Notes: generated by a model not told the origin, from the sequence alone. Positions 58,495 to 64,000 are shown, numbered from the stretch's first letter. The stretch is DNA of 64,000 bases from Candidatus Bathyarchaeota archaeon (GCA_963811105.1 CAWEPZ010000002.1:32001-96000), one strand, 5' to 3'. Translations and numbers: made by a program.

Positions 58495-58573
58495 GCGGTC
58501 GTCGTCTAGTCTGGTTTAGGACATTAGCCTTCCAAGCTAATGATCCCGGGTTCAAATCCCGGCGACCGCACCA
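58495..58573 (+). tRNA. tRNA-Gly (anticodon TCC), CCA encoded
   Basis: Acceptor stem GCGGTCG/CGACCGC, anticodon arm TTAGC-CTTCCAA-GCTAA, T-arm CCGGG-TTCAAAT-CCCGG, ends ACCA. Confidence 0.97.
58526..58546 (+). repeat. attL core (within tRNA-Gly anticodon arm and variable loop)
   Basis: Identical to 63405-63425. Confidence 0.9.
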
Positions 58574-58926
58574 TTTCTACCTTCTGTTCTAAAAATACAA
58601 CCCGATTTAAGCTCTGTTTGGGGTTACTAAATTCTGTAACTGGTTACAATTTTCCGTAACCATAATTCCAGCGTTCTAAAGCAGCCTCAATTCTTCCCGT
58701 AGCTCCTCAATTTTTACTCGTATCCGATGTTTTAAGCGTCTTAGTGTAATTCGCGTTGAAGCTTTGAGGGACCCGAGTTAAAAACAGCCTGTGTGAACTA
58801 TGCAGATGCGCGTGTCCGATTGCTGCGGAAGCAGAGTTCAATTCGTTGTGAAATAAGAAAAAGTATGGTGCAAAGGCCTTCAAAATTCGCCATTGCTACC
58901 AATTGCATGCGCTTGCAGACTCTTGC

Positions 58927-59283
58927 CTAAATCAGCAGAGGTATGCTTTTTGGCGTCGTTCCGTCGAGAGCAAGGTGACTTCCATATGCAACGCCGAGTG
59001 ATAGCAGCCAAGCTTTTTGATTTTCCGTGAGTTGTTTGTCCTGCAATATTCTGTTGCCGCCATAGGAAATCAAACCCAACGTTGCACCGCTGTGGAACAA
59101 GCTCCTATGATTAGGATTAGTGGCAGGCTCAAGCATATCGGGAACCAACGCAACCGCCGCTCCGCTTATTCCTACCGCAAGCACTTCCCAGAAGTTTATC
59201 GGCTGGTCTTTCGACAATTTGTAAAGCAAGTAGAAAGCACTTGCTAATACGCCTCCCGAAATTGCGTGACCTTTTGCATCCAT
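58927..59283 (-). CDS. Membrane-bound metal-dependent hydrolase (YdjM-like)
   Basis: MDAKGH, PD, HRSLFHS, SHLALD motifs with TM helices. Confidence 0.8.
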   Translation of the reverse strand: MDAKGHAISGGVLASAFYLLYKLSKDQPINFWEVLAVGISGAAVALVPDMLEPATNPNHRSLFHSGATLGLISYGGNRILQDKQLTENQKAWLLSLGVAYGSHLALDGTTPKSIPLLI

Positions 59284-59297
59284 TCTTTTTCACCTCC

Positions 59298-59537
59298 TCA
59301 ACTATCGTCGCCTAAGATTTTCGCGATTGCAGCGATGCCAAGTAAGAGTAACAGGAAGCCTGCTAAGTTTCCAAGCGCGGTGTCGTTGTTTTGTTTTCCC
59401 GCTTTCAAATCTGCTAAGAATCCACCAACTATCTTGTCAACCATTTCGCTTCTACTTGATGCTGCGCCGCGGCTCACGAGTTCGTCAATAGCTTTGAGGT
59501 GTTCTTGGCGTAATGTAACCAGGACTTTTTCAGACAT
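59298..59537 (-). CDS. Ribbon-helix-helix (CopG-like) regulator with C-terminal hydrophobic helix
   Basis: VLVTL....L..IDELV..G...SRSE; tail LAGFLLLLLGIAAIA. Confidence 0.75.
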   Translation of the reverse strand: MSEKVLVTLRQEHLKAIDELVSRGAASSRSEMVDKIVGGFLADLKAGKQNNDTALGNLAGFLLLLLGIAAIAKILGDDS

Positions 59538-59540
59538 TGT

Positions 59541-59595
59541 TATCTATCCTATATCTATTAGATATAATTAGATATTGTTAGCGTTTCAATAGATA
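59541..59595. promoter_or_regulatory. Putative RHH operator in the divergent promoter
   Basis: Palindrome TATATCTA-T-TAGATATA (59550-59566) and five TATCTA/TAGATA hexamers within 55 bp. Confidence 0.55.
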
Positions 59596-59673
59596 AGTGT
59601 TATTGACACGAATAAGTAAAGGAAGAAGACGATTACGTGCAGAAAAACAAATGTTAAATCTTAAAAAGTCTGA

Positions 59674-60678
59674 TTGAGATACATGCACAATCACGATAAT
59701 TCACAAGGCTTGAAAAGATGGCAAATCGTTCAGAAAGCTGCACGAGAACTCGGAAAAGATATCTTCTCAGCAAGTGATATTGTCAAAAAAATTCATGAGA
59801 ATATGCCCGATGTGCCAACAGGGACCATTACAGCTTATGTAATCTCTATGGCTCCGAAGCATCCATCATACGATGAGTATCCAACGCATCATGACTATTT
59901 CGAGTTTCTCGGTAGCGGGAAATATAGGCTGCTAAGTAAAGATTGTTTGCCGCCGACTTCGATGCCGCCTGTTGCCTTTGGTAAAACAGGCGTGTCTTTA
60001 GCAGATGATAACATTAAAAACGATTTTCTGAAAAAATACCGAGATTTAATCGTGTCTTGGGCGAAGGAGCACAAAGATGAGCTTATAGCGGGCAGACGAG
60101 ATTATCGCTGGACGAACAATACCTTAGCAGAATCCTTGGAAAAGCGAAACAATTTGACAAGGTTAATTGTTCAATCAAGAATAAAAAACGATGGCGCGGT
60201 GGACTTGGCAACCCTTGACAAGATTATGGAATGGGGCTTTCCAAAAAATCCTCAATTTACGCCGCGAGACTCAAACGAGTGCTTGAAAAAAACCCGTCAA
60301 GCCTTCAATTTGCTGGATGAAGGAAAACCAGCCGAAGCCATCTGCAAACTCATGTCATTTCCCTTGATAATATCGAGGGCGTCCAAAATAATTGGGCTTT
60401 CAGACCCGAACTATTTCGCAATCTATGATAGCCGAGTCGGGCTTGCCCTTGCTACCCTGCAAGATGGCGGAGAGAGGGTAATCAAAATTCCGGGAAGAAG
60501 ACCACAACCAGGACGGTTTTTCTTGTCGGATGAAGGCAAATGTACTTCTAAGGATTGGGGCGCGAACTATGAGAAACTCGTGTGGGTTTTGGAAGTAATT
60601 GCGAATGTACTTAACGAAGAGGGCTATCCGTTCAACCTTGCAGACGTGGAAATGGCGTTATTCATGGTGGGAAAATAG
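59674..60678 (+). CDS. wHTH N-domain fused to HhH/DNA-glycosylase-like C-domain, putative defence protein
   Basis: N-terminal wHTH ending GSGKYRL; C-terminal IMEWG, SRASKI, AIYDSRV, DVEMALFM motifs. Confidence 0.5.
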   Translation: MRYMHNHDNSQGLKRWQIVQKAARELGKDIFSASDIVKKIHENMPDVPTGTITAYVISMAPKHPSYDEYPTHHDYFEFLGSGKYRLLSKDCLPPTSMPPVAFGKTGVSLADDNIKNDFLKKYRDLIVSWAKEHKDELIAGRRDYRWTNNTLAESLEKRNNLTRLIVQSRIKNDGAVDLATLDKIMEWGFPKNPQFTPRDSNECLKKTRQAFNLLDEGKPAEAICKLMSFPLIISRASKIIGLSDPNYFAIYDSRVGLALATLQDGGERVIKIPGRRPQPGRFFLSDEGKCTSKDWGANYEKLVWVLEVIANVLNEEGYPFNLADVEMALFMVGK

Positions 60679-60683
60679 AACTA

Positions 60684-61493
60684 ATGAAAGAATATTCAAG
60701 ACAGCATTATGTGCCCCAATTCTACCTTAAGCTGTTTTCGCCAGAAAAGGATGGCGATTATATCTTTTGCTATGACAAGAAAAATGGGAAGACCTTTAGA
60801 ACAAACGCAAGGCAGGTGTGCTATGAAATCGGCTTTAATAGTGATGTGAATAAGCCAGATAAGCTTGTAGAGACGGCTTTTTCATCGCTTGAAGGTAAAT
60901 GTTGCGAGTTATTAATGAAGATTATAAACGCAGAAGACTTGCACGTTTTAGACATAGAAGAATTTGAAAATTTCGTTGAGTTCATGCTGCTGTTTAAGCA
61001 GAGAACCAAGAAACGAAGGGAAATTGTAAGTTTGGCTCGAAATATCTGGCTTGAAAGGAAAAATAGTCAACTTGTAAATAATCAAATTACCGATTGGAAA
61101 GTAGTTTCATCGGCTGACAATCCTGAGCAATCGGACCATCTTTGGTCAATGATTGAAACGTTTGACGATGAGATGCGGCTTATACTCAAAAACGATTGGC
61201 AATTAATCATAAACAAGACTAATGTGCCATTTTTGACATCAGACGACCCATTACTCCAACAGCTTGTTAAAAACGACCCATTATTCAAAGAACCTTACGT
61301 TAAAAACTATTTTGCCTTAACACCAACATTGCTTGTCCATTCCCAACCTTTGGTTGGCAACTATGTGAATTTAACAAGAGCAACCGTAATAGACGAAGAT
61401 TTGGTCCACAATGTTAACCGACTAACATGGAATAACGCTCAAAGGTTCGTAATATCAAAAGAGGACAAATTCCTTGCAACACCCACCTGCTGA
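60684..61493 (+). CDS. DUF4238 domain protein
   Basis: RQHYVPQFYL.LF N-terminal motif; FLTSDDP. Confidence 0.85.
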   Translation: MKEYSRQHYVPQFYLKLFSPEKDGDYIFCYDKKNGKTFRTNARQVCYEIGFNSDVNKPDKLVETAFSSLEGKCCELLMKIINAEDLHVLDIEEFENFVEFMLLFKQRTKKRREIVSLARNIWLERKNSQLVNNQITDWKVVSSADNPEQSDHLWSMIETFDDEMRLILKNDWQLIINKTNVPFLTSDDPLLQQLVKNDPLFKEPYVKNYFALTPTLLVHSQPLVGNYVNLTRATVIDEDLVHNVNRLTWNNAQRFVISKEDKFLATPTC

Positions 61494-61581
61494 GATTGGG
61501 GCTGCAAGGTTTTATAAATTCTGCAAGTTAAAACGCTATCGGGGATAGACAATCAGCGACTTCACTAAAGGAACCAAGGAC

Positions 61582-62346
61582 TTGGTCGAGCAGCTTTATG
61601 GAGCGGAGATTACCAAAAACTTTCCTAATTATGGAGAGTTTTGGATTAAGTTCATAGGCGACCCACAAAAGGACATTCCCGTGCCGTACGGTTTAGATTT
61701 CACAAATGCTCCAACAGGAACGAACATTGCACAGATTAACCAGAGCTACGAGGAGCTTTGTATGGCTCATTACTCACTATTTTGCCATTTAGCAGGAGCA
61801 CATTATCAGCAGGTTGTTTTGGGTGAAGCCATAAAACTCCCTGACTCCAACGAAAAGAAGTTCAAGCATTGGGAAGCTTTTGAAACGAGTTACATCCACC
61901 TTGGCTCCGTTTTTAACCAGATGTATCATGTTTGGGGAATCGTTTTTCTCCTCAGAAATGAGGTACGCAAAGTTATAGACAAGCGGGGCAAGGAACACCT
62001 GGAACCGAAAGTGCATGAAACACTCAAACAATTTCTTGAAAAGAATGGCCAGAAGATGATTAACGACAGAAAAACTAAGATTGACCTTAGCATCACATCT
62101 CTCAGAAACAGTATTGTTCATTTTTCAAGGTCAGCTTCGACTTACCAAAATGGCGAGTTTATGGTCCCCAGACAAAATCAGCAGGTTGTATGGTCAAAAC
62201 AGCCCATGAAGGAAGCATACGAAACATCAGGAAAACTACAAAATGACATCGCAGAAACGGAGAAAATCATTAACGACACTCACGTTTACCTTATTCAGCA
62301 ATATGAAGATTTTCTAACTACAAATAAAATAGCGGTTAACAAGTGA
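61582..62346 (+). CDS. HEPN-like putative RNase
   Basis: All-helical pattern with RNSIVH (R-x4-H) motif. Confidence 0.6.
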   Translation: MVEQLYGAEITKNFPNYGEFWIKFIGDPQKDIPVPYGLDFTNAPTGTNIAQINQSYEELCMAHYSLFCHLAGAHYQQVVLGEAIKLPDSNEKKFKHWEAFETSYIHLGSVFNQMYHVWGIVFLLRNEVRKVIDKRGKEHLEPKVHETLKQFLEKNGQKMINDRKTKIDLSITSLRNSIVHFSRSASTYQNGEFMVPRQNQQVVWSKQPMKEAYETSGKLQNDIAETEKIINDTHVYLIQQYEDFLTTNKIAVNK

Positions 62347-62360
62347 AGGAGGCGATGTAG

Positions 62361-62516
62361 ATAACAACCTGTCCAGATTGCGGTTCAACGCTTGTTGAGG
62401 AAACCATTATGACATCCAAGGGGCAAACTAATAATTCAGGTTCTGCTGATGCACGCCTAATTACATACACGAAAATTCTGAAATGCCCAAAATGCCCGTA
62501 CAGAACGTTTGGCTAA
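62361..62516 (+). CDS. CPxCG zinc-ribbon microprotein (ATA start, or mutated ATG)
   Basis: Not in ORF track. RBS GGAGGCGA, then ITTCPDCGSTLVEE...ILKCPKCPYRTFG*. Confidence 0.55.
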   Translation: MTTCPDCGSTLVEETIMTSKGQTNNSGSADARLITYTKILKCPKCPYRTFG

Positions 62517-62529
62517 GTTGACCTGCACC

Positions 62530-63414
62530 TTACACGCCTATTTCCTGCGAAAGCCCACTTCTAAGTTTAGCAAGATAATCCGCGTATTTCGGGTAGAACC
62601 CATCTGCCTGCTTGAGTAAAGCGGTGTAATGATTTGCCCCAATTTTCTTTAGTACGCGCCCTTCGATAAAATCGGCGACGCTTTCAGGAACGTTGAACCC
62701 TTCGCTAATCATCGTGTCAAACGCGAATTTGCGGAGATATTTTGGAGCTGGGAAACCCGTTTTGTAGGCGTAAGCCGATGCTCCGTTTGCGCTGACTTTA
62801 TCTTTATTCCGCTTAAGAAGTTCACAAGCGTAAGGGGTAAAATATGCCGCATACACTAACTTTGAGCCTCGGAAATATCCTAAAGTGCACCTGCAGAATC
62901 CGTTAACCTCCACTATCTCCGCCGAACCTTTGTTAAACTCACCAATTAAACGCTCAGCTTCCGTAAGCCTTAGCCCCGAATCCAAAAGCAAATTGAAGAA
63001 CGCTTGGTACCTTAGCGGCGCATTATGAATTTTGCTGAGAATACTCAAAATTTCGCTTTCAATGGGCACGTTCAAATCTACGCCCACGTTGTCTTTAGGT
63101 ATCGCTTTCCTGAGTACAGCCAGGTAGCCGATGTCTACGCCTTTTAGCTCGTAGAACCTGAAAAGTGCGGATAACGCGCGGTTGATGTTGTGGTTTTGGC
63201 CGTTGGTTAAGTTGGCGCAGATTTTCACAATATCCATCGGCTCGCGGATGACGGTTATGAAACGTTCCAATTGCCTCAAGATTGCCTTCGAGTATGACGA
63301 ATTCAAATGTTGCGCGCCAAGATATTCCTCGAACTCGCTTTTTTCGAGTCGCCAATCTATAAATAAACTCGAATTAAACCGATTTACGCAATTAGAGCCA
63401 GTAGAGCCTTCCAA
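62530..63414 (-). CDS. SSV1-type tyrosine integrase, int(C) fragment
   Basis: SGLRLTE, KYLRKF, DFIEGR, HY catalytic Tyr; 5' end lies in the tRNA-derived attR. Confidence 0.88.
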   Translation of the reverse strand: MEGSTGSNCVNRFNSSLFIDWRLEKSEFEEYLGAQHLNSSYSKAILRQLERFITVIREPMDIVKICANLTNGQNHNINRALSALFRFYELKGVDIGYLAVLRKAIPKDNVGVDLNVPIESEILSILSKIHNAPLRYQAFFNLLLDSGLRLTEAERLIGEFNKGSAEIVEVNGFCRCTLGYFRGSKLVYAAYFTPYACELLKRNKDKVSANGASAYAYKTGFPAPKYLRKFAFDTMISEGFNVPESVADFIEGRVLKKIGANHYTALLKQADGFYPKYADYLAKLRSGLSQEIGV

Positions 63415-63425
63415 GCTAATGATCC
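63405..63425 (+). repeat. attR core (partial tRNA-Gly duplication)
   Basis: 21-bp identity to the tRNA; extends to 28 bp with 2 mismatches (CGGGTTC vs GGGGATC), then similarity stops. Confidence 0.88.
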
Positions 63426-64000
63426 GGGGATCTTATGGGGCAAAGCCGCTTTTTCAAATAGTAAACGTTATAAAACCGCTTTTGCGATATCGTCTTCTCG
63501 GTGACTTGCATGCGTAAAGTAATAGTGTTAACAGCGATTTTTCTAATTGCGGTTTGGTTTTTAATGCTTAGTTACCAAATTTTTGTTGAAAAGCTCTAAC
63601 CCCATTAGCGTTAACACTGCAAGAGCCTAATTCTGCTTCTGGTGTCATCCTTAGTTCTAACATTACAGTTGGTGTTTTCGTTTGTTCGTTCGCTGTGGAT
63701 GTTTGTGTTATCTTCCGTAATTTCAAACCTATTGTTTGGTAAACAAAAACGAATTTTCACCCAATTCCTAATCGGCTTAATATTGACGATAACAGGTACT
63801 GCGGCATTTGAAGATTGAAGACTTTTGGCTATGACTTAGCCAATCCAAATACTCTGCTATCCAATTCCTTCGCTCCAAAATATTTGGCAACGCCTATTTT
63901 TCTTTCTTTTATCTTTCCCTGCCCTTCATCTTCATGATATAGTTGACTTACGAGCAATCACAAACAATACAAAAAATAGCTTTTTATGAGCAGACAACCT

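Follow-up and report, generated by a model that had tools for sequence, protein, structure and literature searches.

The 64,000-nucleotide stretch of Candidatus Bathyarchaeota archaeon analysed here (GCA_963811105.1, CAWEPZ010000002.1:32001-96000; hereafter the window) contains a 4,879-bp segment that is bounded by a short direct repeat and located directly after the anticodon arm of a tRNA-Gly(TCC) gene. We interpret this segment, with a probability of roughly 85%, as an integrated cargo element derived from a circular form, in which a tyrosine integrase of the SSV type (the "suicidal", or type I, class) recombined with the tRNA gene. The circular form would have carried its attachment site (attP) within the first 16 codons of the integrase gene itself, and the crossover would fall within 21 bp of identity covering the anticodon loop. 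Integration would cut the integrase gene, which is antiparallel to the tRNA gene, leaving the promoter arm, the ATG and 16 codons at the left attachment site (attL) and the 294-codon catalytic part at the right one (attR), 4.9 kb away, while the tRNA 3′ half brought in by the element would keep the tRNA intact at attL. Recombination between attL and attR would rebuild a 307-codon gene behind a conserved upstream arm. The coordinates of all features are collected in Table 1.

The ends of the element were defined by a repeat search. Two segments, 58526–58553 and 63405–63432, are identical at 26 of 28 positions with a start-to-start spacing of 4879, and their first 21 nt (AGCCTTCCAAGCTAATGATCC) match exactly. 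With up to three mismatches allowed, this 21-mer has two copies in the 3,491,141-bp genome (two forward, none reverse), and its reversed-pattern control has none. Within the tRNA the repeat runs from the 5′ anticodon stem, of which it includes 3 nt, through the anticodon loop, 3′ anticodon stem and variable loop as far as the first base of the T-stem; the 3′ part of the gene from 58547 onward is the element-borne copy (the P′ side). This tRNA gene is the only one that ARAGORN detected in the window, and it is 100% identical to its counterpart in the related genome G019 and 97% identical to those in G013, G010 and G001. Base composition does not mark the element (GC 0.38–0.47 inside vs 0.32–0.44 nearby).

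An earlier note on this DNA had described the 21-bp repeat around about 4.9 kb, and had proposed that the integrase frame begins antisense to the tRNA and resumes at the other end of the element; the present analysis agrees on each of these points. On the minus strand, the frame opens at an ATG made of the last two bases of the encoded CCA and the next T, reads through the tRNA 3′ half and stops at attL (the int(N) stub), and translation of 58521–58646 gave no ATG, GTG or TTG upstream of that codon in this frame. At attR, translation of 63340–63450 gave a stop followed by DPRIISLEGSTGSNCVNRF..., and the frame after the stop, DPRIISLEGSTGSNC..., remains open for 300 codons, with int(C) beginning at the same LEG codons that occur at attL. 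When 62401–63425 was joined to 58547–58700, an in-silico join of the kind that the note had suggested, one continuous frame of 330 codons resulted, 307 of them counted from the ATG, in which the 21-bp core provides codons 11–17. Full-length homologues are built in the same way: P0003, P0004, P0005, P0021 and P0078 all begin with the tRNA-antisense peptide, and P0003 (306 amino acids, aa; 76% identity) has the N-terminus MVRSPGFEPGIISLEGSKGSNC, as the join predicts. The reading of the integrase N-terminus from the tRNA antisense strand is thus supported by both the stub and the homologues, and it is a known property of this integrase class rather than a new one. The integrase of the window copy is really split, its two parts lying at opposite ends of the element. 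To that extent the claim that integration had divided the gene holds, with the limit that the integrated frame lacks only its first 13 codons and the promoter arm, the whole of Int(N) being encoded by the attachment site (att) in this clade.

The catalytic part places the enzyme in a defined family. Int(C) matched PF16795 (Phage_integr_3, archaeal phage integrase) with E = 1e-23 (84.5 bits, cut-off 27, profile positions 3–160 of 161) and the PHROGs integrase family phrog_5127 with E = 7.7e-37, and its sequence matched the SSV1 Int catalytic-domain chains 3uxu, 3vcf and 4dks (E 1.2e-8 to 2.5e-8); the SSV1-type assignment made at first reading therefore stands. Across 26 aligned homologues, residues R149, R182, K225, R228, R253, H262 and Y263 do not vary, and K185 is near-invariant. 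Y263 aligns with the tyrosine of the HY pair in SSV1 Int, which is presumably the nucleophile (Y314). A database search with the integrase returned 442 proteins at E ≤ 0.001, the named ones being from Bathyarchaeia, Bathyarchaeota or "Crenarchaeota archaeon", and the integrase is present in 9 of 120 genomes of the genus at E ≤ 1e-20 (window genome counted); the viral contigs scanned with int yielded no relative. Neither the fusellovirus hallmarks VP1/VP3 nor the SSV DnaA-like ATPase were found with PHROGs and Pfam among the six open reading frames (ORFs) of the element, which, as judged from its sequence, is not a fusellovirus, only the integrase being of SSV type. Elsewhere in the window genome, two weak PF16795 matches (G000:C11:1106485-1106754, 26.5 bits; G000:C2:558444-558551, 20.5 bits) may be integrase remnants.

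The region that lies upstream of int in the joined form, the P′ arm, was aligned with the corresponding arms of elements in G008 and G013. It contains a conserved box, GATTTAAGC (58604–58612), which is TATA-like on the minus strand and precedes the ATG by ~34 nt. Two GGTTAC-N8-GTAAC(C) boxes (58622–58640 and 58643–58661) lie ~21 nt apart; the GATTTAAGC box and the paired GGTTAC boxes are common to the window and G008. These may represent a TATA-like promoter box and an operator. A scan for sigma-70 promoters and terminators, which uses a bacterial model not apt for an archaeon, stayed at shuffle level. The metagenome contig L043 (1,464 bp) carries an intact int (62% identity) with the tRNA half antisense, and the 50 nt directly upstream of it are 84% identical to window positions 58587–58636. 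Thus, the arrangement produced by the join occurs naturally, whether in a free form or at a tandem junction.

Genomes of the same genus share the gene order Elf1-like gene, tRNA-Gly, 91-aa gene and 244-aa gene around the site. Empty tRNA-Gly sites, which the earlier note had proposed to look for, were found in five of them (G001, G010, G016, G021 and G023), where the spacing between the tRNA 3′ end and the right-flank genes departs by 15–37 nt from that in the window with the insert excluded. The distance to the right-flank genes differs by +151 nt in G011 and +425 nt in G019. Other sites are occupied or bear remnants: ~30 kb in G008, ~5.6 kb in G013, +6.9 kb in G003, +4.0 kb in G014, +2.9 kb in G050, +1.8 kb in G015, +1.0 kb in G002 and +0.6 kb in G012. 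The tRNA-Gly site is an insertion hotspot.

The sibling element in G008 measures 5.2 kb and is bounded on both sides by 48-nt att copies. Its int is 77% identical to that of the window at the DNA level over 872 nt and its arm 82% identical over 224 nt, the two elements have no cargo in common, and no replication gene was recognised in the sibling. In the G093 element, int (69% identity) is accompanied by a homologue (61%) of the DUF7669 cargo protein of the window and by a type I restriction-modification (R-M) system. At the same site in G050, 772 nt are 95.6% identical to 62002–62773, whereas the host flanks are 76% and 67–72% identical; this near-identical piece amid diverged flanks argues for recent transfer between species. 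The G050 array is decayed, with internal deletions and int reduced to 83–84 codons, and G013 retains the left arm only, with no int or attR. The backbone of such elements would amount to ~1.2 kb (arm plus int), the remainder being exchangeable cargo. No replication, packaging or virion genes were recognised in the window element with Pfam, PHROGs and NCBIfam, although undescribed functions could hide there. This agrees with the earlier description of a minimal cargo element with no visible replication or virion genes, as does the equally small size of the G008 sibling. Since no replication or transfer genes were recognised, spread of the element would probably depend on a helper.

Further observations were made at these loci. 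In G008, the 5.2-kb element is followed by a second insertion of 19.7 kb (G008:C6:273793-293525; L036:6791 to L037:13525) that is closed by a third att copy of 45 nt with 100% identity and in which no integrase of the family was detected. The G093 element occupies L040:9112-15994 (G093:C23), where the DUF7669 homologue adjoins a complete HsdM, HsdS, HsdR operon and the contig ends before the tRNA. The tRNA-Gly genes of G016 (L009:1962-2069) and G050 (L038:3630-3737) contain a 28–29-nt insertion between positions 31 and 32, at the left edge of the att core; neither gene was called by ARAGORN, and the insertion may be a non-canonical intron. G050 has elements downstream despite this insertion, so integration is not obviously blocked. 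In G021, a copy of the tRNA-Gly 5′ part (positions 1–44, 91% identity; G021:C10:106023-106068) lies ~4 kb upstream of the intact gene (110030–110111), whose 3′ side is empty, which suggests a different type of element that duplicates the tRNA 5′ half.

The antisense coding of Int(N) extends to the wider clade. At all nine genus loci, counted without the window locus and the G050 remnant of 84 codons, the integrase runs antiparallel to the tRNA, and its frame passes at the 5′ end antisense through the T-arm and acceptor strand; the whole tRNA was called in one of the nine. The same 5′ end recurs in 9/9 metagenome loci, these being the nine of 23 in which the gene is present up to its 5′ end. 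Species-representative genomes provided 80 loci, 63 with a match reaching the N-terminal region and 17 with a partial, C-terminal match only. A strict T-arm pattern was present in 35 of the 63, invariably inside the open integrase frame (35/35), and in 10 of these 35 the first start codon lies ≤6 nt from the tRNA 3′ end. The figure of 35 is a lower bound, as variant T loops (e.g. at L079, L094 and L097) miss the pattern. A subclade of ~19 loci (among them L069, L072, L073, L076, L077, L081-L086, L088 and L089; proteins P0092, P0093, P0100, P0104 and P0116) has a coiled-coil N-terminal extension of 60–100 residues (ELKRRVDEQ...SLASSLEG...) and lacks a T-arm at the 5′ end; the shared SLEG could be the mark of an att restricted to the anticodon arm.

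At attR of the integrated G008 element, int is a complete 306-codon frame, which stays whole since identical residues are encoded by the host tRNA half. We regard it as an evenly balanced question whether integrases of the Bathyarchaeia clade are switchable rather than suicidal. Int(N) would be wholly tRNA-antisense, with the start codon supplied by the CCA, so that integration would preserve the coding sequence, separate only the promoter arm and exchange the upstream region, and outward transcription at attR could re-arm excision; the window copy would be a truly split exception. A literature search limited to main texts brought up no account of this clade or of an Int(N) of zero length.

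Between the arm and int(C), the element carries five cargo genes (Table 1). A co-directional trio, comprising a protein with a winged helix-turn-helix and an 8-oxoguanine glycosylase (OGG)-like domain, a DUF4238 protein and a HEPN-like protein, would most likely protect the host against viruses, and a small membrane/ribbon-helix-helix-like pair would also travel as cargo. The 79-aa member of this pair had no Pfam match, and its sequence makes it a weakly supported candidate regulator. For the DUF7669 protein, an AF2 model (pLDDT 87.6) matched winged-helix proteins over residues 12–89 with Z up to 9.3 (VIA-align). Residues 124–334 had a single structural match, the Tm1821 8-oxoguanine glycosylase 3n0u_A (Z 7.7, rmsd 4.6, 165 residues aligned), and an atlas lead pointed to PF21790 OGG with a 14% share; on the basis of the model, we tentatively assign an OGG/DNA-glycosylase-like fold to this domain. 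Comparison of the family with PDB sequence profiles gave a best E of 0.28, and no paper on DUF7669 was found in the literature search. The DUF4238 protein is a candidate anti-virus gene by analogy, a single DUF4238 protein from an E. coli P2 hotspot being described in the available text of PMC9122126 as conferring strong T7 resistance. Within this family, protection against viruses is known for that E. coli member only.

The third protein of the trio has the features of a candidate RNase effector, as far as its model and motif indicate. Among 35 aligned members of its family, R175 of the Rx4H motif RNSIVH is at least 90% conserved and H180 is invariant. The AF2 model (pLDDT 92.6) gave 50 listed structural matches, of which about 10 are HEPN-type with Z 6.4–8.9, values that are middling for helical proteins; we take 5hy3_A, 8xdj_A, 2hsb_A, 7ae2_A, 4nqf_B and 7aex_A to be among them. 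An atlas lead pointed to HEPN_Cthe2314. No Pfam HEPN model passed, the best E of the family against PDB sequence profiles was 2.9, and Foldseek against PDB returned no match at E ≤ 0.001 for this model or for that of the DUF7669 protein. Homologues align from their own residues 11–13, and a further 11 open codons (61549–61581) precede the TTG at 61582; this start may be mis-set.

Table 1. Features of the element and its surroundings in the window (positions counted from the first nucleotide of the window).
Feature	Position	Strand	Basis or remark
tRNA-Gly(TCC)	58495..58573	+	Intact, CCA encoded; ARAGORN
int(N) stub: ATG 58574, 16 codons MVRSPGFEPGIISLEG, then TAA	58524..58574	-	All antisense of the tRNA 3′ half; translation
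attL core, 21-bp exact repeat, anticodon stem to T-stem start	58526..58546		Similarity reaches 58553 (26/28)
P′ arm, upstream of int in the joined form	58575..58769	-	Matches the left end of the G008 element at 81.7% identity (224 nt)
YdjM-family membrane protein, 118 aa	58927..59283	-	PF04307, E 8.5e-12, 45.4 bits, cut-off 29; profile positions 1-116 of 176 only
79-aa ORF, possible ribbon-helix-helix N-terminus, hydrophobic C-terminus	59298..59537	-	Sub-threshold NikR N-terminal matches, E 0.014
334-aa protein, N-terminal winged helix (DUF7669) and ~210-aa C-terminal helical domain	59674..60678	+	PF24706, E 4.5e-14
DUF4238 protein, 269 aa	60684..61493	+	PF14022, E 2.8e-34, 119.3 bits; residues 6-261 on profile positions 1-280 of 281
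HEPN-like protein, 254 aa, motif RNSIVH (R175, H180)	61582..62346	+	Motif conservation, AF2 model
int(C), 294 codons from TTG in LEG, whole SSV-type catalytic domain	62530..63414	-	Frame open back to 63432
attR core, second 21-mer copy	63405..63425		Similarity reaches 63432
Stretch between attR and the first host-homologous sequence, 34 nt	63426..63459		Expected displaced tRNA 3′ end absent

Several observations weigh against the picture of an intact, mobile defence element. The attR of the window retains 21 nt (26/28), compared with 45–48 nt in G008, G093 and G050, and to its right at least ~40 nt are absent, which comprise the displaced tRNA end of 27 nt and some of the spacer. In vitro, the pT26-2 integrase is inactive on substrates under ~54 bp, according to the accessible text of PMC7253208. 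The short attR, the foreign flank and this substrate limit make excision of the window copy doubtful, perhaps impossible, and the copy may be trapped. Regarding the cargo, the HEPN-like gene was found in none of 300 other genomes sampled from the class, and PADLOC returned noise-level matches only (Cas13a model, E 6e-4, for the HEPN-like protein; Cas1, E 0.0067). The defence role is suggested by family resemblance only, and the HEPN and OGG-like folds by middling Z values.

After its first 7 nt, the sequence to the right of attR matches the tRNA 3′ part at 5 of 20 positions, and 10,256 of 20,000 random windows match as closely; a decayed tRNA 3′ half was rejected as the source of this flank, the agreement being at chance level. 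Homology to the host starts 34 nt past the core with AGTAAACGTTATAAAAC at 63460–63476, aligned with G016, G010, G023 and G001. In empty sites this box lies ~50–120 nt beyond the tRNA end, and it is probably the promoter of the small right-hand gene. As the displaced tRNA 3′ end has been lost at attR, the window copy was altered after integration, possibly by deletion or by recombination with an older att remnant. Integration into tRNA-Gly, as first proposed, is borne out by the repeat, the frames and the empty sites, but the present locus is not its pristine product.

These alterations bear on a different history, which we consider unlikely without dismissing it, namely that the 4.9 kb arose by deletion from a larger element or a tandem array and are now fixed as an immobile chromosomal islet. 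The truncated attR with its foreign flank would fit such an islet, as would the tandem or decayed arrays at the same tRNA in G050 and in G008, where three att copies delimit 5.2 kb and 19.7 kb, and the left-arm-only remnant in G013. However, the G008 sibling has pristine 48-nt att copies and no recognisable replication gene at nearly the same size, and in the window int(C) is intact over 294 codons with all family-invariant residues, as are the int(N) stub and the arm.

It is much less probable that the enzyme is a classical integrase of the pNOB8 or lambda type, translated from a start downstream of attP, so that nothing was split. The gene caller did begin the product at an internal Met (P0001, 235 aa), and, with only 16 codons and a high GC content, the part encoded by att could have an open frame by chance. 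Against this, int(C) residues 17–59, upstream of the internal Met, are conserved in the 26 homologues (L49 and P59 invariant, F28 near-invariant), the only start codon between the att core and this conserved region is a TTG inside the core, and the T-arm lies in the open frame at every locus of the three sets in which it was detected. A repeat arising by chance or by duplication of the tRNA gene, with native chromosome in between, can be practically discounted. The repeat is short and nothing else marks such an origin, yet the 21-mer has exactly two genomic copies, the integrase abuts it in frame, and the five relatives without the 4.9 kb at the same position refute this explanation. Integration of a circular form through an SSV-type integrase remains our preferred account.

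Elements with integrases of the SSV type (She et al. 2001/2002; Badel et al. 2020, PMC7253208; review PMC8371274) are the nearest known counterparts. With SSV1/SSV2, pTN3, pT26-2 and TKV the window element shares the PF16795 domain, an attP within the gene, a tRNA 3′ target starting near the anticodon, antiparallel genes, int(N) and int(C) at opposite ends and a translated att. The accessible texts on SSV1, pTN3 and pT26-2 describe this design, in which attP sits within the integrase gene, a tRNA 3′ half is targeted, the two genes are antiparallel and att is translated (PMC7253208, PMC8371274), and the reading of att antisense to the tRNA is given there as a property of SSV-type integrases (PMC7253208). 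Those texts describe such elements from hyperthermophiles, unlike the Bathyarchaeia-like host group of the window (PMC7253208, PMC8371274). According to the same material, the integrase gene of Thermococcales carries att between a 5′ and a 3′ part (PMC7253208). The window integrase, in contrast, lacks the 5′ part, its start codon overlapping the tRNA CCA and its Int(N) being the translation of att only. The window element is also much smaller (4.9 kb) than SSV1, pTN3, pT26-2 and TKV and has no recognisable replication or virion genes.

Tycheposons, which are tRNA-targeting bacterial cargo islands moved by a tyrosine recombinase, have a comparable combination of small backbone and exchangeable cargo. 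In bacterial tRNA-targeting islands the integrase gene is not known to be cut by its own att, unlike that of the window element, and the recombinase family is different. The P2/P4 hotspots, as far as they are covered in the available text, resemble the window element in their small backbone, exchangeable defence cargo, tRNA integration and helper dependence (PMC9122126). Small cryptic integrated elements with an integrase only are described for Thaumarchaeota in the accessible part of Krupovic et al. 2019 (PMC6563490), which includes NitEve-E3 with a split SSV1-like integrase. Like the window element, these combine a small integrase-plus-cargo layout (from 2.6 kb) in mesophilic archaea with short att, R-M or other accessory cargo and no viral hallmarks. 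NitEve-E3 differs in its host class and in encoding an MCM helicase, which the window element does not, and that part of the paper makes no mention of an att at the extreme 5′ end of the gene (PMC6563490). In the available texts of two papers on Bathyarchaeia (PMC10848311, PMC11697101), integrases and proviruses are mentioned, and a term search did not find the present arrangement.

The self-splitting design is thus already known; the window element adds three details of moderate interest, namely the host class, defence cargo carried on a backbone of 1.2 kb and an Int(N) encoded by att alone. The self-splitting integrase, treated in the accessible parts of reviews as a speciality of hyperthermophiles, is common in Bathyarchaeia-like genomes, as the numbers of related proteins and genus genomes given above indicate. 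A backbone of this size would be enough for interchangeable defence genes to be carried from species to species at a single tRNA hotspot. Finally, an att placed at the first codons suggests a simple way for integrases to survive integration, which bears on the persistence of "suicidal" integrases.

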